From Candidatus Shapirobacteria bacterium (GTDB taxonomy: Bacteria; Patescibacteriota; Microgenomatia; UBA12405; BS750m-G30), in the NCBI GenBank assembly GCA_043817235.1, contig JBDRHA010000006.1, positions 10,041-74,040 of the forward strand: DNA of 64,000 bases. The letters run 5' to 3'. Positions 436 to 62,764 of the stretch are shown here, piece after piece. A program made the translations under genes and the position numbers. The notes under the pieces are model-generated. The model was given only the letters and a program-made list of their open reading frames with translations. It made no database searches and was not told where the DNA came from. Position 1 is the first letter of the stretch. Each line of letters begins with the position of its first letter.

Positions 436-766
436 CAGCGCCATTACGAAGGGCGTGTCGTCCCCGCGAAAGCGGGATTTCTTGTCATCCTCGCGAAGGC
501 GGGGATCTATAAAAATATTAATATAGATTCCCGATCAAGTTGGGAATGACACTGTAAATAGTCATCCTGAGCGCAGCCCCGCGAGTCGCGGGGCGCAGCC
601 GAAGGATCTTTTAATTCCGAAGATCTCTCGGCTACGCTCGAGATGACATTGTTTCTGGCAATGGCATTTGGTTGACTTGTCTTTTTGCAGGGGTTTGATT
701 TATCAAGCCCAAAGTTTAATTTCCCCACACACCCGGTGTGGTTCGGGTCACACCGGGTGTGTGTAA
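436..766. repeat. MITE-like palindromic repeat cluster (TGTCAT... family), ending with the hairpin CACACCCGGTGTG-GTTCGGGT-CACACCGGGTGTGTG
   Basis: Direct reading. gtcatcctcgcgaaggcggggatc and gtcatcctgagcgcagccccgcgagtcgcggggcgcagccgaaggatc are units that recur throughout the window. The palindrome is ccccgcgagtcgcgggg. Confidence 0.8.
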
Positions 767-7918: not shown

Positions 7919-8530
7919 ATGGCTGAGTGGTCAAAAGAAAGCATAATTAAAGCAATTTATCACTATTCTCCTCAAGCTGTAATAATTCTGGGAATACTTT
8001 TGGCGGCGGCCGGCGCAGCTTACGTTTTTCTTCCTTCCTCGTCTTCCTCCCAAGTAGAAATAATTAAAGCTGACGAGCAAGAGGAAACCGGAGTGCTAAT
8101 TGCAGATATCTCCGGAGCCGTTATTCAGCCCGGCGTTTACACTCTTTCGGCCGGCTCGCGCTTAAATGATCTTCTGATTGCCGCGGGCGGTTTAAGCATT
8201 GAAGCAGATCGGGACTGGGTGGAGAAAAATATTAATCGAGCCGCACCATTAATAGATGGAGCAAAAATTTATATTCCTAAAATAGGGGAGGAGGTGGGTC
8301 CGCCAGCTGGCGGAGTGGCGGGGCAGAGCACTTCGGGGCTAATAAACTTAAATCAAGCAGACTTAGCTTTATTAGAAACTTTGCCGGGGATTGGGCCGGC
8401 CACGGCTCAAAAAATTTTGGATTATAGAAAAGAAATCGGCTCTTTTTCTGCTCCCGAAGAATTAATGAGCGTTTCCGGAATTGGGCCAAAGACCTATGAG
8501 CAATTAAAAGACCTGATTTCCGTCTACTAG
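7919..8530 (+). CDS. comEA: competence protein ComEA (SLBB domain plus tandem helix-hairpin-helix DNA-binding domain)
   Basis: LINLNQADLALLETLPGIGPATAQKILDYRKEIGSFSAPEELMSVSGIGPKTYEQL is the classic ComEA HhH pair. There is an N-terminal TM. Confidence 0.85.
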   Translation: MAEWSKESIIKAIYHYSPQAVIILGILLAAAGAAYVFLPSSSSSQVEIIKADEQEETGVLIADISGAVIQPGVYTLSAGSRLNDLLIAAGGLSIEADRDWVEKNINRAAPLIDGAKIYIPKIGEEVGPPAGGVAGQSTSGLINLNQADLALLETLPGIGPATAQKILDYRKEIGSFSAPEELMSVSGIGPKTYEQLKDLISVY

Positions 8531-9699
8531 TGAGAAAAGCTTTTCTTTACTTTTTTATTTTTCTTCTTGCTTTTCGTATTTTTGGCTATTATTTTTCTTT
8601 AGCTTCCGGCTATCAGGCGGGGGATCAGGTGCTAATTCATGCTTGCCTGGATACTCAGCCGAAAATAACAAGCCGCAATCAGATTTTTTCTTTAAGCAAA
8701 CTAAGAATAATAACGTCGCAAAATGAGCAGATAAATTTTGGCGATTGTTTGCAAATTAAAGGCAAAGTGGGAGAAAAGGGCTTTTTGGTTGATCCGGAAA
8801 TTGAGTTTTGGGAGCCAGGTCTAGCAAAAGACTGGCTTAACGGCCTAAAGAAGTTCGGGTTTTGGCTTCAGCAAAAAGCCAAAAGCCATTACAATCATTA
8901 TTTGCCTGAGCCTGTTTCTTCTTTGCTTTCCGGCATTGTTTTGGGAGCCAAATCTAATTTGCCCGTTAATTTTTACCAGAAACTGCAAAATACGGGGACA
9001 TTGCATATCGTGGTTGCCAGCGGTTATAACCTTACTGTTATAAGCCAATATCCGGCTGATTTTTTAGCCTGGTTTACGGGCCGCAAGGCCGCTTTAGTCC
9101 TTGGTGGGGCATTGGTCTGGCTTTATGTATTGGTTGCTGGTTTTCAGCCGCCTATAATTAGAGCGGCATTAATCATTAGCTTAGTTTATCTAGCCCGGTA
9201 TTTAGGTAGGAAATTCGATGTTTGGCGTGGGTTTTGGTTAGTAATAGGCTTGATGCTTATTTTTTCGCCCAGCCTTATAGCAAGTATTTCTTTTCAGTTG
9301 AGCGTTTCGGCGATGTTTGGCTTGCTGTATTTTGAAGATAAGTTCCAAAGATTGAGAAATATTAGGTTCGTTGGCAAAGCGTTAGCCGAATCGCTAAGCG
9401 CTCAATTAATGGTTTTGCCGATTATAGGCTTTCATTTTGGAACTGTTTCCTGGGCTTCGCCATTAATAAATATGCTGGTATTGCCTTTTGTGCCGCTTTT
9501 GATGACATTGGGTCTAATATCTTTGGGAGCAAGACCTTTTTTATATCTTGTTTATCCGGCGGGTTATTTATTAGAGAAAATAATTAATTTTTTTGGCCGA
9601 TTCTCTTTTTTGCAAATTTCTTTTTCCTTTTCTTGGTTTTTGGTAATAATTTATTATTTGATTTTGTTTTATATTTTTGGATGGAGAAAAAAAGACTAG
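8530..9699 (+). CDS. comEC: ComEC/Rec2 DNA-uptake channel, N-terminal membrane part (DUF4131 plus competence domain)
   Basis: Polytopic membrane protein directly after comEA. Continues into the MBL-domain ORF in another frame. Confidence 0.75.
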   Translation: MRKAFLYFFIFLLAFRIFGYYFSLASGYQAGDQVLIHACLDTQPKITSRNQIFSLSKLRIITSQNEQINFGDCLQIKGKVGEKGFLVDPEIEFWEPGLAKDWLNGLKKFGFWLQQKAKSHYNHYLPEPVSSLLSGIVLGAKSNLPVNFYQKLQNTGTLHIVVASGYNLTVISQYPADFLAWFTGRKAALVLGGALVWLYVLVAGFQPPIIRAALIISLVYLARYLGRKFDVWRGFWLVIGLMLIFSPSLIASISFQLSVSAMFGLLYFEDKFQRLRNIRFVGKALAESLSAQLMVLPIIGFHFGTVSWASPLINMLVLPFVPLLMTLGLISLGARPFLYLVYPAGYLLEKIINFFGRFSFLQISFSFSWFLVIIYYLILFYIFGWRKKD

Positions 9700-10571: not shown

Positions 10572-10852
10572 CAAAAAATCACACACTCGGTGTGAATTCG
10601 AACCACACCGGGCGTGTGGGAAGCGGGGTGTCGTCGCGAGAGGTGTTCAGTGTCATTGCGGGGCTCGCAATGACAGTCCAAATAGTCATCCCGAGCGCAG
10701 TCGAGGGATCTTTTGAACCAGAAAAAAGGTCGGTTAGTTTCCAAAGATTCCTCGGCTACGCCCCGCAGTTGCGGGGCTGCGCTCGGAATGACACTGAAAA
10801 CAGATTCCCGATCAGGTTGAGAATGACAAAGGAGGTCAGAGTGAGGCTGTAA
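10572..10852. repeat. MITE-like palindromic repeat cluster
   Basis: cacactcggtgtgaattcgaaccacaccgggcgtgtg hairpin, gtcattgcggggctcgcaatgaca, gtcatcccgagcgcagtcgagggatctttt and cgccccgcagttgcggggctgcgctcggaatgacac. Confidence 0.8.
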
Positions 10853-10905: not shown

Positions 10906-11166
10906 ATGCTATATTCAATCATGGTTTATCTTTGGGATTATGATTTAAAAAAGCTAAAGAAAAACAAGAGCGAGCGGGCGAAAATTTTTCTTTTGGAAAG
11001 AATGATAAATTATGGCCCTGGCAAAGAAAAAATAGACTTAAAAGAAGTGAAAAAATATTGGGATAAACTCAATTTGTTTAAACTGCAAAGACGTTTATTT
11101 GAACTATTAATATGGGGAAAATATCAATCCTCACCCCGGACCAAAAAGCCTTTCTGGCGGGGTTGA
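10906..11166 (+). CDS. hypothetical small protein upstream of, and overlapping, the AbiEii-like gene. Possible cognate antitoxin or a fragment.
   Basis: Position only; no recognisable motif. Confidence 0.2.
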   Translation: MLYSIMVYLWDYDLKKLKKNKSERAKIFLLERMINYGPGKEKIDLKEVKKYWDKLNLFKLQRRLFELLIWGKYQSSPRTKKPFWRG

Positions 11167-11768
11167 AGAAAAATCATTATTTTTGCGATAATTTTTACTT
11201 TACTGGAGGCACTGCTTTGGCTGAGTATTATCTTAGCCATCGTTTATCAGAGGATTTAGACTTTTTTTCCGACAAAAGATTTGACAATCATAGGGTGTTG
11301 GGTGGAATAAGAGACTTAAGCAAACTTCTTAATTTTAGCTTTAATTCCCATTTTGCGGAGCCTGCTTACAGTTTTTTTCTCAAGTTTTCTTCTCATTCTC
11401 CAACGAAAATTGACTTTGGTTTTTTCCCTTATCCTAGGTTGGGAAAGAGATTGAAGAAGCAGGGAATTTTGATTGATAGTCAGCTGGATATTGCTGTTAA
11501 TAAATTAATGACTATCTCCCAAAGAACGGATATCAAAGATTTTGTTGATCTTTACTTTTTGCTTGATAAATATTCTTTTTGGGATTTGTTTAGGGGAGTG
11601 GAGGCAAAATTTAAGCAAGAACTTAACCCTTTAATTATTGCTTCTGATTTCTTAAAAATTGAAGAGTTTAATTTCTTGCCGAAAATGATTAGATCTCTCG
11701 AGTTAGAAGATCTGAAAATTTTTTATCGCAAATTAGCAAAAAGATTGGGGAAAAAGAGTTTGCAATAG
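11112..11768 (+). CDS. AbiEii/DUF1814-family nucleotidyltransferase (type IV TA / abortive-infection toxin family)
   Basis: FTGGTALAEYYLSHRLSEDLDFF matches the GGTAL...R.S.DiD nucleotidyltransferase core of the AbiEii family (from memory). Confidence 0.55.
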   Translation: MGKISILTPDQKAFLAGLKKNHYFCDNFYFTGGTALAEYYLSHRLSEDLDFFSDKRFDNHRVLGGIRDLSKLLNFSFNSHFAEPAYSFFLKFSSHSPTKIDFGFFPYPRLGKRLKKQGILIDSQLDIAVNKLMTISQRTDIKDFVDLYFLLDKYSFWDLFRGVEAKFKQELNPLIIASDFLKIEEFNFLPKMIRSLELEDLKIFYRKLAKRLGKKSLQ

Positions 11769-12051: not shown

Positions 12052-12345
12052 AGTGTCATTGTGAAGGGCGTTGCCATCCCCGCGAAGGCGGGGTTCTCGT
12101 TATTCCCGCGCAGGCCGAGAGTCTCTGTCATCCCTGCGCAGGCGGGGATCTATGAAATAATCATATAGATTCCCGATCAGGTCGGGAATGACAAAGAGGA
12201 TGTCATCCCGAGCGCAGTCGAGGGATCTTTTGAACCAGAAAAAAGGTCGGTTAGTTTCCAAAGATTCCTCGGCTGCGCCCCGCGATTCGCGGGGCTGCGC
12301 TCGGAATGACACTGAAAACAGATTCCCAATCAGGTTGAGAACGAT
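12052..12345. repeat. MITE-like palindromic repeat cluster
   Basis: gccatccccgcgaaggcggggttc, gtcatccctgcgcaggcggggatc, gtcatcccgagcgcagtcgagggatctttt and cgccccgcgattcgcggggctgcgctcggaatgacac. Confidence 0.8.
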
Positions 12346-16911: not shown

Positions 16912-17178
16912 ATGAATTATGTAGCAACCAATATCCGTTTTCCGGAAGAGGACTGGAAGTATTTTAAAATCAAGGCCTTGGAGGCTAGGAAAAGTTTGGC
17001 TGCTTGGATCAGAGATTCTTTAAGAGAAAAAGAGGGCTTAACTAAAAAAACTGTCAAAAGCCAAGAGAAAGATTCTTTTTGGGAATTTCCTGAACTTTTG
17101 AAAAAGAATAAAATTAGAGATAAGGCGCCCAAAAATCTTTCTTTAAATCTTGATCAATATCTTTATGGCCAAGAATAA
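16912..17178 (+). CDS. vapB: ribbon-helix-helix (CopG-like) antitoxin, partner of the downstream PIN toxin
   Basis: NIRFPEEDWKYFKIKALEARKSLAAWIRDSL follows the beta-strand-then-helix pattern of RHH antitoxins. Overlaps the PIN gene start. Confidence 0.55.
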   Translation: MNYVATNIRFPEEDWKYFKIKALEARKSLAAWIRDSLREKEGLTKKTVKSQEKDSFWEFPELLKKNKIRDKAPKNLSLNLDQYLYGQE

Positions 17179-17581
17179 GGTATATATTGACACTTCCGCT
17201 TTAGTGGCTTACTTAAGGCCAGCTGATAGCTGTCACAAGAAAGCCGTTAAGGTTTGGGAAAGATTAAGAAAAGACCAGCCAAATCTAATTCTCACTAATT
17301 ATATTCTGGCTGAATTTTTCACTGTAATTAGACAAAGAATTGGAATAAAGGCGGCGGTAAAAGCAGGCGAGATAATAAAAAGGTCTTCGTATTTTAAGAT
17401 AATTTGGGCAGATCAAGTATTAGATGAGGAAGCTTGGAAAATTTTTAAAAAAAACACCCAAAAAAATATTAGTTTTGTTGACTGTGTTTCTATAGCGGTA
17501 ATCGAGAAGTTGAAAATTAATGCCGTTTTTGGTTTTGATAAACATCTTGTTAAGGCCGGAGTTAAATTGATAGAAAACTAA
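17150..17581 (+). CDS. vapC: PIN-domain ribonuclease toxin VapC
   Basis: KVYIDTSALVAYL...LTNYILAEFFTV...FVDCVSIAVIEKL...FGFDKHL carries the PIN acidic residues in canonical positions. Confidence 0.75.
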   Translation: MINIFMAKNKVYIDTSALVAYLRPADSCHKKAVKVWERLRKDQPNLILTNYILAEFFTVIRQRIGIKAAVKAGEIIKRSSYFKIIWADQVLDEEAWKIFKKNTQKNISFVDCVSIAVIEKLKINAVFGFDKHLVKAGVKLIEN

Positions 17582-17596
17582 TCAGCAATTTAAAGC

Positions 17597-17645
17597 AGAG
17601 ATTGCCACGCCCCCCGATGTAGCGTCGGGGGACTCGCAATGACAC
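17597..17645. repeat. MITE fragment (ttgccacgccccccgatgtagcgtcgggggactcgcaatgaca)
   Basis: Same right end as the elements at 20084-20222 and 53583-53662. Confidence 0.7.
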
Positions 17646-17963
17646 ATTCATCGTTCCAAAAAGAAAAGAGAACCGACTGCCACAAGGCTATTTTAACATT
17701 CTTTCACCCTTGATATAATTTTATTTTGCGAGCGGGAAAACCTCGGAGCTTGCTCCGTGGATGAAAGCTATAATCCTCGCAAAGCGAGCAAAAGAAGAAA
17801 CTGCGCAAGCTTGCTGCGCAGAGGCTTCATTTTTTATGTTAACTTTAAAATTAGTTGAAAGGAAATAAAATTATGGAAACCATCACTACTCTAAAAATTA
17901 TTTCTTCTTATATTTCGTATTTAGAAACATTTTCTTCGCCGCTTTTTCTTAACTAGCAAGAAT

Positions 17964-18161
17964 TTGGAATTGAAAGAGATTAATCAAGAAATAGCCGATT
18001 GGGCGGCAATGCTCAGAAGAAATTATCACATCGCTACTCCTGATACTCTTCAGATAGCGACGGCAGCAGTCAGTAAAGCAAAACTATTTGTCTCTAACGA
18101 CAAAAACTGTCAGAAAATCAAAGAAATAAAAGTATTGGTTTTAAAAGACTATTTGGATTAA
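17964..18161 (+). pseudogene. C-terminal remnant of a PIN-domain (VapC) gene
   Basis: ATPDTLQIATAAVSKAKLFVSNDKN resembles the PIN C-terminus (D...IAATA...LVT.D). The upstream N-terminal part and the antitoxin are not intact. The 5' flank duplicates 16786-16866. Confidence 0.4.
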
Positions 18162-18235
18162 AAAACAGCAAGAGGCTGAATGCTGGGACATCTTATAGCT
18201 TGAAAAATTAAAAAAGAAATGATAAAAATATAGTA

Positions 18236-18547
18236 ATGGAAAAAGAAGCAGGAGTTCTATTAAGCGAGGCTGTTAACAGTTTGCCGGAAGATAGCCGCTG
18301 GAAAGGTCGTTTTGAAAAATGGGGGGCGCAGTTTCCGGAGGCTACCATATCAGAATTAACTTTAAGTGATATCCGGAAAGGCGCTAATCCTAAGAAGGGT
18401 GAAGTTTTTCGGGAAGTGGCTAATGGCGAAGGAAAAGGAAGCACCCATGAATCGGTGGCAAGCTTAAGTTTGAAAGCAGATCATAAATATGGGTTACCCA
18501 AGTCCCACAGAGCTAAAACTAGCCGAAGTGTTCGACGCAGGTGGTGA
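18236..18547 (+). CDS. hypothetical protein
   Basis: ORF only. Confidence 0.25.
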   Translation: MEKEAGVLLSEAVNSLPEDSRWKGRFEKWGAQFPEATISELTLSDIRKGANPKKGEVFREVANGEGKGSTHESVASLSLKADHKYGLPKSHRAKTSRSVRRRW

Positions 18548-18627
18548 TTCTTAAAGTGCCGAAATAATCTTTTCGACTTATTCTGCCACTTGACAGATTC
18601 TTTCTTTGGTAATAAAATATTACCAGT

Positions 18628-18927
18628 ATGAAAGTCGGAGTTATTACCACTGCTAATGATAAAGGTCAGGTAGTTATCCCCAAATATATGAGGGAAAAAT
18701 TAGGTATTAACAAAAAGGTGCCTCTAAACTTTGTTTTAAGAGGGGAAGGTATTTATATTTATCCGGTAGACGAGGTCTTAGTTTCTAGTAAAAATAGTTC
18801 TTCCTCTTATTTAGAAATGCTGAAATTAACCCAGGGAGGCTGGTCTAGTGAAAATTGGGAATCTATCAGAAAAAGTAGAGAGAGAATAGAAAAAAAAGCA
18901 TCTGAGCAAAGAAGAAAAAGATGGTAG
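18628..18927 (+). CDS. vapB: AbrB/MazE/SpoVT-type antitoxin
   Basis: TANDKGQVVIPKYMREKLGINKKVPLNFVLRGEGIYIYPVDEV is the swapped-hairpin AbrB-fold signature. Overlaps the downstream PIN gene (ATGGTAG). Confidence 0.7.
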   Translation: MKVGVITTANDKGQVVIPKYMREKLGINKKVPLNFVLRGEGIYIYPVDEVLVSSKNSSSSYLEMLKLTQGGWSSENWESIRKSRERIEKKASEQRRKRW

Positions 18928-19307
18928 TAATCGACACGAGTATTGTTATAGATCATCTTCGACAGAAAACTAAAATTAGATCTTATTTAGTAAAACTCGT
19001 CGAAAAACATCCTAAAAACGAACTAGCAATATCAGTTCTGAGTGTTCAAGAGCTATATGAAGGCAGGAGCACGAGGGATGTAAATCAGGAAAAAATACTT
19101 TTGGCGACAATAAGTCCCTTAAGAATCTTGCCCTATAATTATGAAACAGCTAAAATGGCGGGAGAAATAGCGCGTGACTTGGCGGAAACGATTCAATTTG
19201 CAGATGCGGCAATTGCGGCGACAGCCATCGTTAACGGTGGGCAATTAGCCACTTTAAATAAGAAAGATTTTCAGAAAATACGAGATTTAGATTTTTTTAA
19301 TTTTTAA
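18921..19307 (+). CDS. vapC: PIN-domain toxin VapC
   Basis: MVVIDTSIVIDHL...SVQELYEG...FADAAIAATAIVNGGQLATLNKKDFQKI. Confidence 0.75.
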   Translation: MVVIDTSIVIDHLRQKTKIRSYLVKLVEKHPKNELAISVLSVQELYEGRSTRDVNQEKILLATISPLRILPYNYETAKMAGEIARDLAETIQFADAAIAATAIVNGGQLATLNKKDFQKIRDLDFFNF

Positions 19308-22300
19308 ACTTTCAGCTTTTTGGATTTTTTGCCCTCCGGTTTTGAGCAAAATCTCTTTTTCAAACTCCTTTGGCCAGGAAGGAGCAAAAATAATTATTTT
19401 ATCGGTTAATTCTAAATTTTCTTTTCTTCGCAGCGTCTGGACTTCTCTAATTAAATCGCGCGCTTTACCCTCTTTTTTTAATTCTGGGGTTAATTTTGTA
19501 TTGAGCTTTATGCTTTTAGCTAATTTTATTTTTTTAATATTCAGCTCATCTAAAAGAAGATAGTCGATATTTAGCTTCTTAAAAAAGGAAGCGTTTGGCG
19601 AATACAAGGCGGAAAGCGGTTGCTTGACGGCAATATTTTTTGCTTTGCGCAAGGCATGACCTTCGGTAACTTCGTTTCTTAATTGAGCCATTGCTTTTTC
19701 TAAATCCAAATTTAAATATTTCTTTTCTATTTTTGGCCAAGACTGGAGATGAATGGAGTCTTTAACTTTTAATTTATTTTTATTTCCCTGAAGGTTCTGC
19801 CAGACGGTTTCCGGCAAAAAAGGAATAAAGATACCCAAAAGCAAGGAAAGCTGCTCCAGGCAATGATAGAGGGTGCTAAAACAAGCTTCGCGGTCCCTCG
19901 TGTTTTGGCTGTTGGGCGAGAGCCGCTCGCGGGAGCGGCGCACATACCAAAGGGAAAGATCTTCTATAAAGTTTTCTAAGCTTTTTAAGGCGTTTTGATG
20001 ACGAAAACGATTCAGTTCGCCTTGGGCCTCTTTTTTGGTGTTTTCCAGCCGAGAGAGAATCCAAGCGTCAAGCGGGCTAGTGTCATTGCGAGGAGTCGCT
20101 GAGGAGGCGTGGAAATCCAGTTTCCGTGTCATTGCGAGGATCGGAGCGACGTGGCAATCTTTCCAACGGGATCGCCACGCCCCCGACGTCACGTCGTGGG
20201 ACTCGCGATGACAAGGACACCAGCCATTTAAATTCGCATAAGTAGCTAAAAAGCGAAAAGAGTTCCAATAAAGGAAAATAAATCTTCGCCTGATTTCATC
20301 GGCAATAGAATAGCCAAAATTAAGGCCAAGATGGGGCCTTTGCCGGCAGTATAGCCAGCGCATCGTGTCTACTCCCATTTTTTCGACAGCCTCATCATAA
20401 GGAATGCCGTTTTTCTTGGTCTTGCTCATTCGCTCGCCTTTTTCGTCGCGCACTTCGCCGTGGTTAAGAACACTCTTGTATGGAGCCATATTTTCAAAAA
20501 TTACTCCGTAAACGAGCATCGAATAAAACCAGAGCCGGATTTGCTCAATCATTTCCAAAACTAAGTCAGCCGGGAACCACTTTTGCCAGTATTTTTTGTC
20601 TTCAAAATATTTTAAGGTAGAAAAAGGAACGACGCCTGCGTCCAGCCAGCAATCGCCCACGTCCAAAATTCGGTTTACGGGCTTACCGCACTGGGGGCAT
20701 TTGATTTTAATTTCATCAACCCAGGGTCGGTGCAAAGAGGGGAGTTTGTCGACTAAATTTTGGTTTACTGCCAATTTTTTTAGTTCTTTTTTAGAGCCGA
20801 TTACGGTTAGTTTTTTGCACTTAAGGCATTCATAAAAAGGCAAAGATAAGCCGTAAAAGCGCTTGCGGCTGATCATCCAGTCTCCCATATTATTGAGCCA
20901 GCCCTGCATTCTTTTTCCGGCAAATTTCGGAATCCAGTTGGCCGTGGCCGCGGCCTTTTTTAGCTCGGGCTTGATTTTGGTGCAATTAATAAACCAATTT
21001 TCTTCTAAGCGAAATAAAGTTTTTGCGCCGCACCGCCAGCAGTGGGGGTAAGAATGGGTAATGGTTTCCGTTTTATAAAGTAGATTTTTGTCTTTTAAAT
21101 AGTTAATTACTTCTTTTCCCACTTCGTGGGCGTATTTATTAGTTAAACTACCGTAGCCCGGGCCAAATTGGCCGGCTTCCGTTAAAGGAGAAAGAGCGGG
21201 TGCGCCCAAGCTTTTTCCCAGGAGAAAATCGTCTTCTCCACAGCCCGGAGCAATATGAACGATTCCGGTTCCTTCATCTGGATTAGCCAGCTTCCATTTT
21301 ACGACAGAATGCTTAATATTTTTTTGAGCGGGAATATCATAAAGCGATTCGTATTCTTGACCTAATAAATCTTTGGCGGCAACGGAGATTTGGTTTTTCA
21401 AGCCCAAGCGGTCGGCCGACTCTTTAGCCAAATACCAGTATTCGACTCCGCTGTCATCCCGAGCGTAGTCGAGGGATCTTCTTTTTTTTGTCATTGCGAG
21501 CGTAGCGAAGCAATCCCGAGTGGAATCTGTAATTTCAACGGGATCGCCATGTCCCGCAGCTGCGGGACTCGCGATGACACGATTCTTCGCGACGACACGG
21601 ACTTTCACATACTCATATTCTGGATTGATCGCCAAAAGGACGTTAGCAGATAAAGTCCAGGGGGTTGTAGTCCAGGCTAAGAAATACTCATTCTTTTTAT
21701 TTTTTAAAGGGAATTTAACATGAACGGAAAAATCTTGAATATCTTTATAGCCTTCGGCCTGTTCATGGCGGGATAAACCGGTTTCGCACCTCGGGCACCA
21801 GGTGGTGGCGGATTTTGCCTTATAAAGTAATTCTTTTTGGCGGCAGATTTGCAAAAATTTCCAAATATATAAATTATTAGTTTCCGAATAAGTATAATAG
21901 GAATTATCCCAATCCATAAAATAGCCCAAGCGCTTGGACTGCTCGGCTTGCAAGGCAGCATAAGTTTTGACCCGGTCTTGGCATGATTGGGTAAATTTAG
22001 CTAAACCATATTTTTCAATATCTTTTTTGGAATTAAAGCCTAAGGCTTTTTCCACCTCTACTTCAACCCAAAGTCCCTGGCAGTCAAACCCGTTTTGAAA
22101 TCTTTGCTGATAGCCTTGGGCGTTTTTGTATTTTTGATAAAGGTCTTTTAAGGTTCGGCCCCAGGCATGGTGCGCACCCATGGGGTTATTGGCAGTAATT
22201 GGGCCGTCAATAAAAGAAAAGCGCTTTTTAGAATTTTTATTTTTGGCTAAATATTTTTCAAGCAAGCCGTTTTTTTCCCAAAACTTAAGAATCTTTTTTT

Positions 22301-22370
22301 CGTTTTGAACAAAATCAAATTGAGCTTCGGGTAAAGCAAAATAATTTTCTTTCTTTTTCTTAGTTTTCAT
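19287..22370 (-). CDS. ileS: isoleucyl-tRNA synthetase carrying two in-frame MITE insertions
   Basis: HxGH-type motif NPMGAHHAWG; KMSKS-like ERMSKTKKNG; Zn-finger-like WCPRCETGL; CP1 editing region. The ORF is continuous across repeats at 20084-20222 and 21437-21600. Confidence 0.95.
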   Translation of the reverse strand: MKTKKKKENYFALPEAQFDFVQNEKKILKFWEKNGLLEKYLAKNKNSKKRFSFIDGPITANNPMGAHHAWGRTLKDLYQKYKNAQGYQQRFQNGFDCQGLWVEVEVEKALGFNSKKDIEKYGLAKFTQSCQDRVKTYAALQAEQSKRLGYFMDWDNSYYTYSETNNLYIWKFLQICRQKELLYKAKSATTWCPRCETGLSRHEQAEGYKDIQDFSVHVKFPLKNKKNEYFLAWTTTPWTLSANVLLAINPEYEYVKVRVVAKNRVIASPAAAGHGDPVEITDSTRDCFATLAMTKKRRSLDYARDDSGVEYWYLAKESADRLGLKNQISVAAKDLLGQEYESLYDIPAQKNIKHSVVKWKLANPDEGTGIVHIAPGCGEDDFLLGKSLGAPALSPLTEAGQFGPGYGSLTNKYAHEVGKEVINYLKDKNLLYKTETITHSYPHCWRCGAKTLFRLEENWFINCTKIKPELKKAAATANWIPKFAGKRMQGWLNNMGDWMISRKRFYGLSLPFYECLKCKKLTVIGSKKELKKLAVNQNLVDKLPSLHRPWVDEIKIKCPQCGKPVNRILDVGDCWLDAGVVPFSTLKYFEDKKYWQKWFPADLVLEMIEQIRLWFYSMLVYGVIFENMAPYKSVLNHGEVRDEKGERMSKTKKNGIPYDEAVEKMGVDTMRWLYCRQRPHLGLNFGYSIADEIRRRFIFLYWNSFRFLATYANLNGWCPCHRESHDVTSGAWRSRWKDCHVAPILAMTRKLDFHASSATPRNDTSPLDAWILSRLENTKKEAQGELNRFRHQNALKSLENFIEDLSLWYVRRSRERLSPNSQNTRDREACFSTLYHCLEQLSLLLGIFIPFLPETVWQNLQGNKNKLKVKDSIHLQSWPKIEKKYLNLDLEKAMAQLRNEVTEGHALRKAKNIAVKQPLSALYSPNASFFKKLNIDYLLLDELNIKKIKLAKSIKLNTKLTPELKKEGKARDLIREVQTLRRKENLELTDKIIIFAPSWPKEFEKEILLKTGGQKIQKAESLKIKKI
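20084..20222. repeat. MITE pair inserted in frame in ileS (encodes ...CPCHRESHDVTSGAWRSRWKDCHVAPILAMTRKLDFHASSATPRNDTSPLDA...)
   Basis: gtcattgcgaggagtcgc ... gtcattgcgaggatcggagcgacgtggcaatcttt ... cgtgggactcgcgatgaca. The host frame is not broken. Confidence 0.85.
21437..21600. repeat. MITE pair inserted in frame in ileS (encodes ...ASPAAAGHGDPVEITDSTRDCFATLAMTKKRRSLDYARDDSG...)
   Basis: gtcatcccgagcgtagtcgagggatc, gtcattgcgagcgtagcgaagcaatcc and cccgcagctgcgggactcgcgatgaca. Confidence 0.85.
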
Positions 22371-27230: not shown

Positions 27231-27521
27231 ATGAATAAAGATAAAAAGGTAAGATTAGTGCCTAAATTTAAAAATGAGGCGCAAGAGCGAAAATTTTGGG
27301 CTAATCATGATTTAGCTGATTATCTTGAACAGTTCCAGTCAGTTAATCTTGATTTATCAGAGTTAAGACCGTCTACTAAGCCAATTACCATCAGGTTGCC
27401 CGTTTCTCTAATTTCAGCTTTAAAAGGGTTAGCTCACAAAAGAGACGTTCCTTACCAATCTTTACTGAAAATATTTTTAGCCGAAAGAGTGGAAAAAGAA
27501 ATTAAAAATATCCATGCTTGA
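27231..27521 (+). CDS. BrnA/COG3514-like antitoxin (ribbon-helix-helix family)
   Basis: KNEAQERKFWANHDLADYLE...KPITIRLPVSLISALKGLAHKRDVPYQSLLKIFLAERVEKE matches the BrnA-family pattern E.eF.E.HD...KR.TIRLP..ll..lK..A...G.pYQ.Lik.flae (from memory). Confidence 0.5.
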   Translation: MNKDKKVRLVPKFKNEAQERKFWANHDLADYLEQFQSVNLDLSELRPSTKPITIRLPVSLISALKGLAHKRDVPYQSLLKIFLAERVEKEIKNIHA

Positions 27522-27780
27522 ACGGGAAGAGCTAACCGAACCCAGAGAAATAGAATTAGTGGAGCTAGCGGATGATCAAAAAGTAACTTGGTATACTCCT
27601 GATTTGGGAGGAGTGGAAATTGAAGTTAAAGGAAAGTTTATTAAAAGGGCAGCCGAGGTGCTAGAAGAATACGGCCGAGAAATAAAATTGACAGTCATTG
27701 GGGCGACAGTATTAGCTATGGTTGTGGCTATTGTTCGCAAAAAGCGAAGCAAAGCAATTCCAGAAGCTGAACTTCCTTAG
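27514..27780 (+). CDS. small protein with a C-terminal TM helix, translationally coupled to the BrnA-like gene (ATGCTTGA overlap)
   Basis: ...EIKLTVIGATVLAMVVAIVRKKRSK is a single hydrophobic helix followed by a basic patch. Confidence 0.35.
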   Translation: MLEREELTEPREIELVELADDQKVTWYTPDLGGVEIEVKGKFIKRAAEVLEEYGREIKLTVIGATVLAMVVAIVRKKRSKAIPEAELP

Positions 27781-32892: not shown

Positions 32893-33068
32893 AGATCCTT
32901 CGGCTACGCTCAGGATGACGAAGAGAGTGTCATTGCGAGAGCTTTGACTTGCACACACCCGGTGTGGTTCGGGTCACACCGGGTGTGTGGCGATCCCGTT
33001 GAGATTGCCATGTCAGTCGCCCCGTAGCTGCAAGGCTCCTTCCTCGCAATGACAGGGAGTTGTTGGTA
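32893..33068. repeat. MITE-like repeat cluster with the cacacccggtgtggttcgggtcacaccgggtgtgtg hairpin
   Basis: ccttcggctacgctcaggatgac; a full element tgtcattgcgagagc...ttcctcgcaatgaca with the hairpin nested inside. Confidence 0.8.
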
Positions 33069-34132: not shown

Positions 34133-35601
34133 ATCCTATATAGATAAGAGTGCTAAAAGTATATTATATGCATTTTGAATATTAATAACCTCTTATAGTA
34201 TAAAGATAATTAATTTAAAACATTATTTAAGAATAATAAAGAGTATTAGTAGATTATTTACATCTTTATGAATAATATAAAAATAATTTAGAGCAAAATA
34301 TTTATACTAAAAAGGAAAAATATTGTTTCAGGCCTGAAGATATTCATATCTTATAGAAAAGATAGCGAAAAACTATGTTAAGAAGAATAATATTATTAGC
34401 ATAATTAGATTATTATAGGAAAGATTAAGAGAATTTTAGTTAATTTATTAAAGTATTAATAAAATATATCTCTTGAAAAAAGTTAAAATAATTAAAAAAT
34501 TATCAAAATAATTTAGTAGACCTAGAGAAAGTATAAATAAGGATGCGAAAATAGTGAAAAGATTATCGTTAATTAGAAAAATCTTATCTTAAAGACAAAA
34601 AAATGACCCAGAAAGGCCATTCTCTTGGGTTAGAATACTCGTAAAGAATGGGTAAAAAACTATATTTTATTCCTTTAGCAAAGCATACAAAGCTCTGATA
34701 AGTTCACCTGCGTTCTAATATTATATTTCCTATCTATAGGGATTTTATTGTAAATAGTCTTGTTTCGTGCCTGAGCGGGAAGACGCTGGGTTTTCATAAG
34801 AAAGAAGAATCAAAAAACCAAAAAGAATAGTTAGTTCTTTTAAAAGATTTAATGCGGAAAATATTTTTGCTTTTTTTTAGCACACGGCCAGGAAAGCAAA
34901 AAATATTCGGTATATGGCTTATTATGGCCCACTAGAGCGGTGCTGAGCAGCTTTGAGCTTCTTTGACTACTTGAGTAGAGGTAATTTCCTTAAGTTAACA
35001 ACTCTAAAATAATCTTGAGGGCTTAGCAAGAAAAGCAGTTCTTTGATAAATTTCAGGATAAAAGCATAATTGGAGGTGAGAAATAAGTGGTGAATAGATA
35101 GTGGATAGGGATAAATATCTGAAGTTTTTTTTGCCTTACCCCAGGCGTATTTTTTTGGTGATTCAGGAGAGATTTAAGAGTGATGTAGGGTGTGATTAAG
35201 ATGTAGGCAAAAGAGCCGCTGAATTTCTTTGTTGCCTTGAAAAATACAGAAAAAGCCCTTTTTTTCCATTGATAGTTTTTTATATCTTTTAATTATCAGT
35301 ATAGTCTTTTAATAGCCAAAGATAGGGGGAGTTATATTAGCAATTTCAACTTTTCACGAAGCATGCACTCGGGGTTAGGATAAATAAAATATTATCGCAG
35401 GTTATCCGATTGTGTAGCAGTGTATGCCTAAATATGTAAAATAGATTGTGAAAATAGACTAAAATATTTTTCGCAAAATAATTATTAAATCAACCATGCT
35501 TTTAAAAACTAGTTCTTGACATGCTAACAGATGATTTGTTATTGTTGTTTTAATAAAGACATTCATTGTTATAAATAATAGTAGAAAATTAAAAGAAGAA
35601 A

Positions 35602-36836: not shown

Positions 36837-37068
36837 GTGGGGGTTGATAGTCATCCCGAGTGCATCCCGAGGGATCTTTGGAATTAAGAAATCTCTCCTT
36901 TAACAAGATCCCTCGGGATGCACTCGGGATGACGAGAAACATGTCATTGCGAGCCCCAAAGGGGCGTGGCAATCTTGCTTTCCCAATGGGATTGCCGCGT
37001 CAGTCGCTTCGCTTCCTTCCTGGCAATGACACTCTTTCTGTCATCCTCGTGAAGGCGAAGGATCTATA
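36837..37068. repeat. MITE-like repeat cluster
   Basis: gtcatcccgagtgcatcccgagggatcttt, its inverted partner, and the full element tgtcattgcgagccccaaaggggcgtggcaatcttgc...cctggcaatgaca. Confidence 0.8.
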
Positions 37069-39669: not shown

Positions 39670-40320
39670 ATGCTAGTTTTAGGCTTGGGCAATCCGGAAA
39701 AAGAATATCAAGATAATCGCCATAATACGGGCAAGCAGTTTTTAGACTTTTTAGACCAAAATAACGAATTAAATTGGCAAAAAAGAAAAGACTTGCTTTG
39801 TTTTTTGGCCAAGAAAGATGATTTATATTTGGCCAAATCTCTAACTTATATGAATGATTCGGGTCAAGCTGCTCAGGCTTTAGTAAAAAAATTAAAAGTA
39901 AAATTAAATAATTTTTATTTAGCTCATGATGAGCTGGATTTAAAATTAGGGGAGTATAAAATTAGCTTTGGCAAAAGTTCGGCTCTTCATAAAGGAGTTT
40001 TATCAGTAGAGCGGGAGCTAAAAAGTAAAGATTTCTGGCGCGTTAGGATTGGGGTAGATAATCGCGATTCAGAAAACCGGATTGCGGGGGAAAGATATGT
40101 TTTGCAGGATTTTCGATCAGAGGAAGAAAAAAAGCTAAAAAAAGTATTTGAGGAAATCATTGTGTCATTGCGGGGGTATTGTCATCCTGAGCGAAGTCGA
40201 AGGATCTTTCCGAAGATTCCTCGATCCCGCAGCTGCGGGACTCAAGATGACTATTTAAACTGTCATTCCGAGCGCAGCCCCGCTACTGCGGGGCGTAGCC
40301 GAGGGATCTTTGAGAATTAA
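39670..40320 (+). CDS. pth: peptidyl-tRNA hydrolase with about 45-aa C-terminal extension encoded by MITE repeats
   Basis: MLVLGLGNPEKEYQDNRHNTGKQFLD is the Pth N-terminal signature with catalytic His. Residues after about 170 (GYCHPERSRRIFPKIPRSRSCGTQDDYLNCHSERSPATAGRSRGIFEN) are the translation of the repeat units at 40168-40317. Confidence 0.9.
   Translation: MLVLGLGNPEKEYQDNRHNTGKQFLDFLDQNNELNWQKRKDLLCFLAKKDDLYLAKSLTYMNDSGQAAQALVKKLKVKLNNFYLAHDELDLKLGEYKISFGKSSALHKGVLSVERELKSKDFWRVRIGVDNRDSENRIAGERYVLQDFRSEEEKKLKKVFEEIIVSLRGYCHPERSRRIFPKIPRSRSCGTQDDYLNCHSERSPATAGRSRGIFEN
40168..40317. repeat. MITE-like repeats forming the 3' end of pth
   Basis: gtcatcctgagcgaagtcgaaggatcttt, cccgcagctgcgggactcaagatgac and tgtcattccgagcgcagccccgctactgcggggcgtagccgagggatctttg. 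Confidence 0.8.
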
Positions 40321-40353
40321 GTAGGGATTTCCCTCTGGTAAAATTATTATTAA

Positions 40354-40644
40354 ATGCAAAAACAGTTCTTTGTTTATATCTTAAGCAATTTCAAAAGAAA
40401 CGTTCTTTGCATTGGGGTTACCAGTAATTTAAGGAAAAGGGTTTGGGAACACAGGCAAGATTTAGTTCAAGGATTTACCAAAAAATATCAAGTTCATGAC
40501 CTGCTCTATTACGAAGTGTTTACTGATTCTATGCTGGCGATTGCCAGAGAAAAACAGCTAAAAAAATGGAACAGAAGAAAGAAAAATGCCTTAATTGCGA
40601 CGACCAATCCTAAACTTAAAGATCTTTATTCAATAATTTCTTAG
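40354..40644 (+). CDS. GIY-YIG nuclease superfamily protein (UPF0213-like small standalone GIY-YIG)
   Basis: FFVYILSNFKRNVLCIGVTSNLRKRVWEH contains the GIY/YIG motifs and the conserved Arg and Glu. 96 aa. Confidence 0.8.
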   Translation: MQKQFFVYILSNFKRNVLCIGVTSNLRKRVWEHRQDLVQGFTKKYQVHDLLYYEVFTDSMLAIAREKQLKKWNRRKKNALIATTNPKLKDLYSIIS

Positions 40645-40790
40645 ATTGACAAAAGATCTTTCGACTTCGCTCGGGATGACAGGAAACAATGTCATTCCGA
40701 GCATAGTCGAGGAATCTTTGGCGATTAAGCGAAGTATTTTTCTGATTTACGAAAGATCCTTCGGCTACGCTCAGGATGACTTATGGATCA
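40641..40790. repeat. MITE-like repeat cluster
   Basis: ctttcgacttcgctcgggatgaca, tgtcattccgagcatagtcgaggaatcttt and ccttcggctacgctcaggatgac. Confidence 0.8.
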
Positions 40791-41783
40791 ACTAACCTGA
40801 TTTTCTGTCTTGTTTGCCAAAAAGGAGCGAATATTTTCATAAGTAGTTTGAATAATGCGTTTTATAGCCTCTTTGCTGTTAAAGGCATTGTGCGGGGTGA
40901 TAATCACGTTCGGCATTTCTCTTAGCAGGTGAACCGCGACTAATTCTTTTAAATCATCATTAGAAATATAGCGAGAAAATAAAGCGGACGGATCATCTAA
41001 AATTTCTTCTTCCTCTAAAACGTCCAAGCCTGCCCCTCTCAAAATCTTTTGTTCTAGAGCCCATAAAATTGCTTCGGTTTCCACGACCGGGCCGCGGGCG
41101 GTGTTGATAAGCAAACTTCCTTTTTTCATTCTTTTAATATTTTGCTTATTTATTAAGTGATGAGTGGCTTTACAGTAGGGAACATGCAAGGAGATAATAT
41201 CTGACTCTTTTAAGCACAGCTCAAGGGGAACACGCTGATAGCCAAGCTTTTTTTCCAGTTTGGGGTGGCCCTCGTTGGTTACTCCCAGGACTTTCATCTC
41301 AAAGGCCTTGGCATAGCGCGTCATCCATTGGCCAATCTTTCCAACGCCTACCACTCCCAATATTTTCCCTTTTAAGTCAAAGCCGGTTAAGCCATTAGGT
41401 GAAAACCCACCTTGCCTGACTCTTTCCGAGCCTTCCACGATACGGCGGGATAAGGCCAAAATTAAAGCAAAAGTATGCTCGGCGACCGTATTTTCGCCAT
41501 AAGAAGGAACGTTGCAAACTATGATTTTGTTTTTTTGGCAATATTCAAGGTCAATATGATCAAATCCGGTGGAACGGGTAGCAATCATTTTTAAAGCGGG
41601 TAGTTTTTTTAAGATTTTGGCCGATAGATCAGAGTAAATAAAAGTGGAAATAATTTCATACTCGGCTGCGGTTTTTAAATCTTCTTCTACTTCAGAAGGA
41701 TAAATATCTGCTTTTAGCTTTTTGGCAAAAGAAGGCAAAACCTCTTTTTCCCATTCTTTTAATTCAAAAAAGGCAATTTTCAT
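40788..41783 (-). CDS. D-isomer-specific 2-hydroxyacid dehydrogenase (NAD-binding Rossmann enzyme)
   Basis: GKILGVVGVGKIGQWMTRYAKAFEMKVLG dinucleotide-binding motif; catalytic R/E/H context (NTARGPVVETEAIL...PHNA). Confidence 0.8.
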   Translation of the reverse strand: MKIAFFELKEWEKEVLPSFAKKLKADIYPSEVEEDLKTAAEYEIISTFIYSDLSAKILKKLPALKMIATRSTGFDHIDLEYCQKNKIIVCNVPSYGENTVAEHTFALILALSRRIVEGSERVRQGGFSPNGLTGFDLKGKILGVVGVGKIGQWMTRYAKAFEMKVLGVTNEGHPKLEKKLGYQRVPLELCLKESDIISLHVPYCKATHHLINKQNIKRMKKGSLLINTARGPVVETEAILWALEQKILRGAGLDVLEEEEILDDPSALFSRYISNDDLKELVAVHLLREMPNVIITPHNAFNSKEAIKRIIQTTYENIRSFLANKTENQVS

Positions 41784-43307: not shown

Positions 43308-43560
43308 TAGTCATTCCGAGCTTCGAGACCAGTGTCATTGCGAGTCCCGATGGTTCTGTTAGCCATCGGGGCGCGGCAATCCCGCTGGGATTACGGGTTA
43401 CGCACGGGATCGTTCCGCTACGCTCAGGATGGCGATTTAAACTGTCATTCCGAGCGCAGCCCCGCAGTAGCGGGGCGCAGTCGAGGAATCTTTGGCAATT
43501 AAGCGAAGTATTTCTCTGATTTACGAAAGACCCTTCGGCTACGCTCAGGATGACGATCTC
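43308..43560. repeat. MITE-like repeat cluster
   Basis: gtcattccgagcttcgagacc, tgtcattgcgagtcccgatggttc...ggcgcggcaatcccgctgggatta, tgtcattccgagcgcagccccgcagtagcggggcgcagtcgaggaatcttt and ccttcggctacgctcaggatgacga. Confidence 0.8.
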
Positions 43561-45347: not shown

Positions 45348-45600
45348 GAAATTCCCAGAGTCATTCCGAGCGAAGTCCCGAGTACTCGGGACGAAGTCGA
45401 GGAATCTTTAGGAGTAAAAAGATCCTTCGGCTGCGCCCCGTGAATCGCGGGGCTGCGCTCAGGATGACAGGAAACAATGTCATTGCGAGCCCCGCAGCTG
45501 CGGGGGAAGTAATCCCAGGCGGAATATGCAATCCCGTTGGATAGATTGCTTCGTTAGTCACTAGCGTTTCTTCCTCGCAATGACAAAGGAGGTTGAGATT
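45348..45600. repeat. MITE-like repeat cluster including a full 113-bp element with perfect 12-bp TIRs (45476-45590)
   Basis: tgtcattgcgagccccgcagctgcggggg ... ttcctcgcaatgaca; also gtcattccgagcgaagtcccgagtactcgggacgaagtcgaggaatcttt. Confidence 0.85.
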
Positions 45601-47925: not shown

Positions 47926-48014
47926 TTAAGTTTTTGGCTTTAAGCTAATTACCGCCTCGGTAAGATTTTTAAGTCCCGCAGCTGCGGGAGACTTACTGTC
48001 TTGGGCTAGACTTA

Positions 48015-62102: not shown

Positions 62103-62290
62103 GCCCAACTAGTCATTCCGAGCGAGTCAAGATAGAAAGATCCTTCGGCTATGCTCAGGATGACTATTTAATCTGTCATTCCGAGCGAAGCCCCGCGATT
62201 CGCGGGGCGCAGTCGAGGAATCTTCGGAAAAATCCTTCGATCCCGCCGGTGCGGGGCTCGCAATGACAATAGGTGCGGTATTATTGAGTT
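62103..62290. repeat. MITE-like repeat cluster
   Basis: gtcattccgagcgagtcaagatagaaagatccttcggctatgctcaggatgac, tgtcattccgagcgaagccccgcgattcgcggggcgcagtcgaggaatctt and gatcccgccggtgcggggctcgcaatgaca. Confidence 0.8.
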
Positions 62291-62325
62291 TAAGCGGGGG
62301 AGTAGGATAAAATATAGTAGTCTTT

Positions 62326-62396
62326 TAGGCCCGTGGTGAAATGGCTATCATCAACGTCTCCAACCCCGCAGCTGCGGGGCGAGTCCTGGAAGGGCC
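62326..62396 (+). pseudogene. disrupted copy of tRNA-Trp: the first 38 nt are identical to the intact gene, then a MITE-core palindrome CCCCGCAGCTGCGGGG replaces the middle
   Basis: aggcccgtggtgaaatggctatcatcaacgtctccaa is identical to 62665-62701. It is followed by ccccgcagctgcggggcgagtcctggaagggcc, which keeps only T-loop/acceptor-like remnants. Confidence 0.55.
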
Positions 62397-62408
62397 TTTT
62401 AGATTAAA

Positions 62409-62666
62409 ATGTTTTACGTTTATGTCTTGTTGAGTATAAAAGACAAGAATATTTATACTGGGCTTACCTCTAATTTGCTGGCTAGACTAACCGAACATAA
62501 AGAAGGTTTAGTGAGGTCAACCAGAAGCAGAAGACCGGTAAAATTGATATACTATGAGGCTTATTTATCTAAGGTAGACGCTTTACGCAGAGAAAAATAT
62601 TTAAAATTGGGCGGCAAAGCCAAGACGACTTTAAAAAAACAAATACAAGAATCTTTATTATTTTAG
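62409..62666 (+). CDS. GIY-YIG nuclease superfamily protein (second copy; 85 aa)
   Basis: MFYVYVLLSIKDKNIYTGLTSNLLARLTEHKEG...KLIYYEAYLSKVDALRREKYLK. The TAG stop overlaps the 5' end of tRNA-Trp. Confidence 0.8.
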   Translation: MFYVYVLLSIKDKNIYTGLTSNLLARLTEHKEGLVRSTRSRRPVKLIYYEAYLSKVDALRREKYLKLGGKAKTTLKKQIQESLLF

Positions 62667-62736
62667 GCCCGTGGTGAAATGGCTATCATCAACGTCTCCA
62701 AAACGTTGGTTTCAGGTTCGAGTCCTGACGGGCCTG
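62665..62736 (+). tRNA. tRNA-Trp (anticodon CCA)
   Basis: AGGCCCG-TG-GTGA-AATGGCTA-TCAT-C-AACGT-CTCCAAA-ACGTT-GGTT-TCAGG-TTCGAGT-CCTGA-CGGGCCT-G. Good acceptor, anticodon and T arms. Confidence 0.75.
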
Positions 62737-62764
62737 CCGCGATTTTGAATGCTATAATTATTCT

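Follow-up and report, generated by a model that had tools for sequence, protein, structure and literature searches.

What spreads a family of hairpin repeats through a genome region that encodes no transposase, and what part is played by a small nuclease gene lying among the repeats? The question is posed by a 64-kb stretch of a Candidatus Shapirobacteria genome (contig JBDRHA010000006.1; the whole stretch is referred to here as the window), which carries clusters of short palindromes headed by GTCAT and two small GIY-YIG nuclease genes, at 40354-40644 and 62409-62666. A preliminary description of the window called the repeats miniature inverted-repeat transposable elements (MITEs), tied both genes to them, and proposed, as a so far undescribed explanation, that a GIY-YIG nuclease mobilizes the palindromes or moves along with them. 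With high confidence, the first gene and the repeats constitute an Ssn/SRM system, in which the so-called MITE units are the Ssn-related motifs (SRMs) cognate to the Ssn nuclease of 40354-40644. The second gene is no part of this system. The claim of novelty does not stand because Chenal et al. 2025 (Nat Commun 16:2388; PMC11893778), who named the Ssn nucleases and the SRM/NTS motifs, report the family, the motifs, and their genome-wide association.

The characterized member, SsnA of Neisseria meningitidis, consists of 94 aa with GIY-YIG as its only domain (CDD cd10448); it binds the NTS (CGTCATTCCCGCGMAVGCGGGAATCYRG) only as single-stranded DNA (ssDNA), cuts a few nucleotides upstream of it, and is inactive on double-stranded DNA (dsDNA), RNA, and the reverse strand (PMC11893778). 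Cutting depends most on the three bases that precede the palindrome, and binding on the C that follows it; the substitutions Y6A, Y17A, and E64A abolish cutting with binding kept (PMC11893778). Among ssn homologs, 71% have at least one nearby SRM and 42% have SRMs on both sides; 81% of the genomes with more than 200 SRMs carry an ssn homolog, and Rickettsia is listed among the SRM-rich genera (PMC11893778). A literature search returned no later papers on SsnA.

The first GIY-YIG gene and its flanking hairpins

The 96-aa protein encoded at 40354-40644 matches the GIY-YIG domain PF01541 over residues 5-77 (E 2.7e-13) and has no other Pfam domain, in agreement with the single-domain, ~94-aa makeup of the Ssn family (cd10448). 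It retains Y8, R29, H33, E66, and N85. Among the equivalents of SsnA Y6, Y17, and E64, Y8 and E66 are kept and Y17 is replaced by Cys19, at a position that is tyrosine in 117 of 120 homologs. The protein is 48-61% identical to homologs, many of which have the published NTS consensus at their flanks, and its gene likewise has hairpins on both sides, in + orientation upstream and - orientation downstream (Table 1). The two GIY-YIG proteins of the window are 38% identical to each other, and a tblastn search of the 64 kb found no further GIY-YIG copies or fragments. A single-sequence search of the PDB gave no match; in a profile search, the nearest solved relatives of both families are the UPF0213 proteins 1ZG2 (BH0048) and 1YWL (EF2693) (E 1.9e-8 and 8e-11).

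As the preliminary description stated, the first gene is bracketed by repeat clusters, with units at 40181-40308 and 40655-40780. Repeats occupy 15 of the 62 intergenic gaps in the window, and the chance probability is ~0.06 that both flanks of the first gene are occupied and ~0.014 that all three gaps are. Adjacency within the window is therefore only suggestive; the association is significant for the first gene only, by a test across genomes. Homologs of the protein number 4661 at E<1e-5, and a locus scan with one genome per species yielded at least 597 ssn-like loci. The best 80 of these (48-61% identity) were analyzed and span Acidobacteriota, Omnitrophota, four proteobacterial classes, Clostridia, Cyanobacteria, Bacteroidota, Chloroflexota, Verrucomicrobiota, and seven lineages of the Candidate Phyla Radiation (CPR). 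Units of the form GTC-stem..stem'-C were scored within 150 nt of each gene, with open reading frames (ORFs) of at least 150 aa in the same loci as controls. A hairpin in + orientation lies upstream of 55 of the 80 genes (16 of 926 control ORFs), a hairpin in - orientation lies downstream of 49 (21 of 926), and hairpins stand on both sides of 37 (0 of 926); at least one flanking hairpin is present at 67 loci. These counts (46% on both sides, 84% on at least one) reproduce the published 42% and 71%. They are decisive for the link between the first gene and the hairpins, and the functional tie between nuclease and repeats suggested in the preliminary description is thus real and general for this family, as is the enrichment of repeats near its genes that PMC11893778 had already found.

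Architecture of the hairpin units

The repeat motif TGTCATTGCGAG occurs 34 times in the window with at most one mismatch (0.16 expected), and 50 heads fit GTCATnnnGAG. About 45 units consist of GTC, a 5-nt stem, an inner part, the perfectly complementary 5 nt, and C. The detector used requires the 5-bp stem and the C; a permissive version yields false singletons within genes, and one demanding a 6-bp perfect stem missed window units. Positions G1, T2, C3, and C26 are invariant, which reproduces the GTC 5' and C 3' of the palindrome that mark SRMs. In 17 short units, 97% of the stem cells are paired and four of the six pairs show changes on both sides, as in the covarying variants ATCCT/AGGAT, ATTCC/GGAAT, ATTGC/GCAAT, ATCGC/GCGAT, and ATCTC/GAGAT; none of 500 shuffles matches this, and slid controls collapse.

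Three unit types are present: (i) a 26-nt GA-type, (ii) a 47-nt GA-type with a nested CCCCGC..GCGGGG hairpin, and (iii) a few perfect hairpins of 24-25 nt, e.g., GTCATTCCCGACCTGATCGGGAATC. The GA-type is laid out as a 5-bp stem, tandem G.A/A.G pairs (G9.A20 and A10.G19, both invariant), a G-C pair, and a 6-nt loop, often with the nested hairpin. The perfect-stem type folds stably (-7.6 kcal/mol, z -3.5). Canonical NTS-like units lie at 484-507, 526-550, 12127-12150, 12168-12192, and 37040-37064, and the published SRM pattern, HGTCWYN(0-2)YYVSBRHN(0-5)WNVSBRGN(0-2)RNCYNB, has one match in the window (483-510). No repeat reaches the gathering score in Rfam 15, and the matches within 40100-40850 are all at chance level. 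A structured-RNA reading of the repeats was set aside on the grounds that SsnA does not bind RNA and that the units are found in both strands, arranged as inverted pairs.

The 47-nt units at 43444-43490, 45360-45406, and 62175-62222 equal a 26-nt unit (cf. 40691-40716) plus a 16-nt hairpin with the 5-nt loop sequence CGNAG on both of its sides, and look like units whose loop has received a small second hairpin element and duplicated 5 nt in the process. This 16-nt hairpin also stands alone at 47974-47989, beside the L10 leader.

The GA-type is not confined to the window. Ssn homologs of Clostridia, Verrucomicrobiota, Gammaproteobacteria, and CPR have it beside their genes as well, and it was found at 27 of the 80 loci, with perfect NTS-type hairpins at 36. 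Ssn repeats have probably been under-counted because the published pattern misses the GA-type, which makes up 27 of the 66 classifiable loci. Hairpin type and nuclease sequence go together: proteins with the same hairpin type are 56.5% identical versus 49.2% across types (0 of 2000 permutations). Within a locus, the two arms are also more alike (0.76) than arms taken from separate loci (0.60), and in 19 of the 37 two-sided loci an arm has its own partner as best match.

Head-out pairs and the cassette

Units in the window are paired head-out, i.e., a + unit, a spacer of 20-60 nt, and a - unit, with GTCAT and ATGAC as the outer ends, and the clusters are strings of such pairs. The first gene and its neighboring units are arranged as [+ -][+ gene -][+ -], so that 40354-40644 fills the spacer of one pair. 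Gene-less pairs are the cassette without its gene, in the same polarity. Arms 40180-40209 and 40652-40681 are 93% complementary, and the pair 40691-40780 folds as a single long DNA hairpin (-15.2 kcal/mol, z -3.1). Pairs form subfamilies with common spacers (40691-40780 with 43444-43554; 10685-10792 with 12202-12310 and 1681-1784), in which similarity stops at GTCAT/ATGAC(A) and the flanks are unrelated.

The same boundaries delimit complete cassettes elsewhere. Two paralogous cassettes in one metagenome-assembled genome (loci L051 and L053) have genes that are 81% identical and hairpins that are both 100% identical, and their similarity runs from CTGTCAT to ATGACA; the cassette behaves as a unit ending exactly at the outer GTCAT/ATGAC bases. 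Two further cassettes, from Candidatus Desulfacyla euxinica (L049 and L074), are 98.6% identical over 517 bp and lie inside a longer element with inverted ends (GCATTACCAGTTTGTTAAAG...), so an ssn cassette can sit in, or be carried by, another repeat.

Back-to-back units (ATGAC...GTCAT) are 9-10 nt apart in nine of ten window junctions, with recurring spacers (TATTTAAWCT twice, AGGAAACAAT twice). A universal, fixed 9-10-nt junction is ruled out by other genomes, where the spacing is lineage-specific at 8, 9, 23-24, or 35-36 nt and never below 8 nt in the genomes examined. The uniform junctions of the window are what one would expect if every unit carried 4-5 nt of its own outside GTCAT; given the variation between lineages, they support the mechanism of spread proposed below only weakly.

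Table 1. Positions of the two GIY-YIG genes, their hairpins, and associated features in the window.
Feature	Position	Strand	Details
Gene-less head-out pair	40181-40251		units 40181-40206 (+) and ~40215-40251 (-), the latter with nested TCCCGCAGCTGCGGGA hairpin
Upstream SRM-type hairpin	40262-40308	+	47-nt GA-type, nested CCCCGC..GCGGGG; ends 45 nt before ATG
Ssn-family GIY-YIG nuclease gene (assignment highly probable)	40354-40644	+	96 aa, single PF01541 domain
Downstream SRM-type hairpin	~40655-40680	-	26-nt GA-type, inverted; starts 10 nt past stop codon
Gene-less head-out pair	40691-40780		units 40691-40716 (+) and 40755-40780 (-)
Two head-out hairpin pairs	62112-62267		62112+/62164- and 62175+/62267-; upstream of second gene, lineage-specific
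Degenerate tRNA-Trp copy	62327-62397	+	5' half identical to intact gene; CCCCGCAGCTGCGGGG hairpin (62364-62379) replaces anticodon-to-T-arm segment
Second GIY-YIG gene	62409-62666	+	85 aa, PF01541 E 2.5e-15, catalytic residues intact
Intact tRNA-Trp (CCA)	62665-62738	+	
Back-to-back junctions	550-561, 10674-10685, 12192-12202, 32919-32929, 36933-36943, 40251-40262, 40680-40691, 45468-45479, 62164-62175		

Insertions into genes and other window content

Hairpin pairs have entered coding sequence. An ORF for an IleRS-like class I tRNA synthetase (19287-22370, -) reads in frame through two hairpin-pair clusters, at 21453-21578 and 20082-20212. The first insert adds ~48 aa (NRVIASPAAAGHGDP...YARDDSGVEY) that are missing from the 10 closest homologs; an essential gene has therefore taken up a lineage-specific insertion with its frame preserved. 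Next to the cassette, the Pfam match of a peptidyl-tRNA hydrolase ORF (39670-40320, +) stops at residue 168 of 216 and the ORF continues into the left repeat cluster, so that its last ~50 codons are repeat-encoded (VSLRGYCHPERSRRIF...).

The preliminary description was right that the 64 kb hold no transposase: among the 63 called ORFs, Pfam at E<=1e-6 detects none that encodes a transposase, recombinase, or integrase, the Y1_Tnp and OrfB families included. Elsewhere in the window, toxin-antitoxin-type genes (AbiEii, PIN, CopG antitoxin) stand amid housekeeping genes at 11112-11768, 16912-19307, and 27231-27780, and a ~1.4-kb segment (34133-35601) has no ORF of at least 70 aa in the gene call and no Rfam match.

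The second GIY-YIG gene belongs to a separate, tRNA-linked family

The preliminary description had placed the second gene after a repeat cluster and a hairpin-disrupted tRNA, and both are present (Table 1). The stop codon of 62409-62666, TAG, overlaps the first two bases of the intact tRNA-Trp, and a perfect 41-nt direct repeat, with copies at 62323-62363 and 62661-62701, encloses the hairpin, the T-arm remnant, and the gene. The protein has 920 homologs, mostly from CPR and 84-95 aa long. Hidden Markov models of this family and of Ssn score it at 129 versus 54 bits and separate the two families without overlap among 238 sequences; membership in Ssn was considered and is ruled out by this separation and the near-absence of GTCAT flanks.

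In a context sample of 80 metagenome loci, GTCAT units occur upstream of 1 gene of this family and downstream of none, so the proposed tie of both GIY-YIG genes to the repeats holds for the first and fails for the second, whose family hardly ever has GTCAT repeats at its flanks. Orthologs in other Shapirobacteria (L081, L083, L096-L101) stop precisely where tRNA-Trp begins and are surrounded by tRNA-Trp fragments, with a CCCGC-N4-GCGGG hairpin in place of the anticodon-to-T-arm segment and no GTCAT cluster upstream. Because the family association is 1 in 80 and the orthologs lack the cluster, the cluster at 62112-62267 is most likely incidental to the second gene.

What these genes do tend to adjoin is tRNA. 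At 34 of the 80 loci a tRNA gene on the same strand is found within 300 nt (27 upstream, 13 downstream), an opposite-strand tRNA gene at 1, and at Ssn-family loci the count is 0 of 80. Short perfect hairpins centered on GCTNAGC are enriched 13-fold within 200 nt of the genes (2.35 vs 0.18 per kb); as a rule they come immediately after the 3' end of the tRNA. Among loci L096-L175, for example, genes of the family lie 50-200 nt downstream of a same-strand tRNA (L104, L110, L113, L118, L120, L134, L135), with one or two GCTNAGC hairpins (e.g., CACCAAGCTCAGCTTGGTG, GGGACGCTCAGCGTCCC) directly past its 3' end. An AbiEii gene is also near genes of this type in L088-L095. The family and the GCTNAGC hairpins are a possible second pairing of nuclease and hairpin, of which literature searches found no description.

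How the pairs may spread

The explanation that fits best, and that we hold to be somewhat more probably right than wrong, combines the Ssn/SRM identity with a selfish element. The cassette would be its autonomous form and the gene-less pairs its non-autonomous form, analogous to RAYT/REPIN. Spread would start when Ssn, in the course of replication or DNA uptake, nicks the DNA 5' of the two outer hairpins, once on each strand; host repair or replication would then do the copying. That Ssn itself, as the 40354-40644 copy or a paralog, is the agent spreading the pairs is a closer call, about even or a little below.

Several points weigh against this explanation. GIY-YIG enzymes hydrolyze DNA and are not known to carry out strand transfer. 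A mobilizing role of Ssn is so far a hypothesis, and target-site duplications were not seen at the copy boundaries of the pairs and cassettes examined. A transposase may lie beyond the window, which covers only 64 kb of the genome. The 40354-40644 copy, with Cys19, may be inactive and bind without cutting, because SsnA Y17A binds yet does not cut. As to identity, its placement in Ssn is indirect, by way of homologs with NTS-type flanks; the published SRM pattern has no match at its flanks, and the lone 26-nt unit is predicted by the nearest-neighbor model to fold weakly as DNA (-1.5 kcal/mol, z 0.4). Finally, the only function demonstrated in vivo, in Neisseria, is to restrict transforming ssDNA that carries an NTS (PMC11893778).

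This last point carries the strongest alternative, in which the Ssn/SRM identity holds and the system serves the host: the nuclease would restrict or trim incoming or exposed ssDNA at the hairpins, and the repeats would have spread by recombination or slippage or be relics of an old expansion. It invokes the only function shown experimentally, in neisserial natural transformation, and the window has DNA-uptake genes at 7919-9699, namely ComEA (7919-8530; SLBB, HHH_3) and ComEC (8530-9699; Competence domain), so that ssDNA entering the cell could plausibly be a substrate here. Host service leaves unexplained, however, (i) the inverted hairpins that bracket the gene at 37 of 80 loci, (ii) the paralogous cassettes that end exactly at the hairpins, (iii) the cassette geometry of the gene-less pairs, and (iv) the insertion of pairs into essential genes. 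It is a possible explanation that we consider rather unlikely.

An unlinked transposase outside the window, of the IS200/IS605 or RAYT-type Y1 class or of the DDE class, could instead mobilize the pairs, with the GIY-YIG gene as a passenger or an insertion target. Y1 transposases are established to move REP/REPIN elements of similar geometry, and the window holds only 64 kb of a larger genome. Against such an enzyme stand the lack of any transposase in the window, the covariation of hairpin type with Ssn sequence, and the tracking of hairpins by ssn across phyla, including 81% of the SRM-richest genomes (PMC11893778), which together make it improbable. Chance adjacency, in a window where a quarter of the intergenic gaps hold repeats, is compatible with the p~0.06 for the first gene and probably accounts for the GTCAT cluster at the second (1 of 80 loci; orthologs without it), but for the first gene it is refuted by 37 two-sided loci of 80 versus 0 of 926 controls and is very hard to credit.

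A broader version of the selfish-element explanation can be formulated, on which we would put tentative weight only, expecting it to fail sooner than to hold as a whole. Small single-domain GIY-YIG nucleases would fall into several families, each matched to a separate class of hairpin, and would power REPIN-like selfish elements with no transposase involved, such that (a) in this genome the GTCAT pairs are copied after Ssn nicks at both outer ends and (b) the second gene represents an undescribed Ssn-like family, expressed from or targeted to tRNA genes, whose GCTNAGC-type hairpins (here CCCCGC-N4-GCGGGG) have invaded a tRNA-Trp copy and SRM loops with an apparent 5-nt loop duplication. Part (a) is consistent with the back-to-back spacing of 9-10 nt and the lack of junctions below 8 nt in any genome examined.

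What the window adds

The Ssn-SRM partnership, published in 2025, is here re-derived from raw sequence and extended to the Candidate Phyla Radiation. New are the CPR member of Ssn, the GA-type hairpin, the gene-less head-out pairs with cassette geometry, the in-frame insertion into IleRS, and the cysteine at the catalytic tyrosine; the tRNA-linked GIY-YIG family is possibly a new sister family. PMC11893778 likens NTS-ssnA-NTS to an insertion sequence, to IS200/IS605, and to REP/RAYT/BIME, and its Discussion hypothesizes domestication and repeat expansion. The head-out pairs, the precision of the cassette boundaries, and the IleRS insertion bring into sharper focus whether Ssn mobilizes the repeats, a question that paper leaves open. 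If Ssn does mobilize them, RAYT/REPIN would for the first time have a counterpart built on a hydrolytic nuclease. The tRNA-linked family may yield further sequence-specific ssDNA nucleases, which are of practical interest as tools.

Comparison with known systems

The closest counterpart is the Ssn/SRM system of PMC11893778, with which the present system shares (i) a single-domain nuclease of ~95 aa, (ii) oriented hairpins on both sides with GTC 5' and C 3', (iii) hundreds of mostly intergenic, gene-less copies, and (iv) a wide and patchy distribution. It differs in its host, a member of the CPR (Shapirobacteria), a group that PMC11893778 does not mention, in the GA-type as main hairpin, which the published pattern misses, in the head-out pairing, and in the Cys at the position of SsnA Y17.

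REP/REPIN elements with RAYT are alike in having a gene between inverted hairpins, non-autonomous inverted pairs that fold as one long hairpin, recognition of ssDNA hairpins, BIME-like clusters, and no target duplication. The enzymes are different: no HUH/Y1 transposase lies between the inverted hairpins of the window, where the enclosed gene encodes a hydrolytic GIY-YIG nuclease, for which no covalent intermediate is known. Of the features of a classical MITE, the pairs have inverted termini, but no target duplication was seen and no DDE transposase is encoded in the window.

Rickettsia palindromic elements, which Ogata and colleagues are said to have described in 2000, are palindromic repeats reportedly inserted in frame in protein-coding genes. 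The insertion into IleRS resembles them in arrangement. Free-standing GIY-YIG homing endonucleases include I-TevI and the Seg proteins of phage T4, among them SegB in a tRNA gene cluster. Like these, the window genes are small, selfish-looking, intergenic GIY-YIG genes, and those of the second family adjoin tRNA genes; unlike them, the window proteins have no DNA-binding domain, and Ssn targets ssDNA hairpins instead of dsDNA homing sites.

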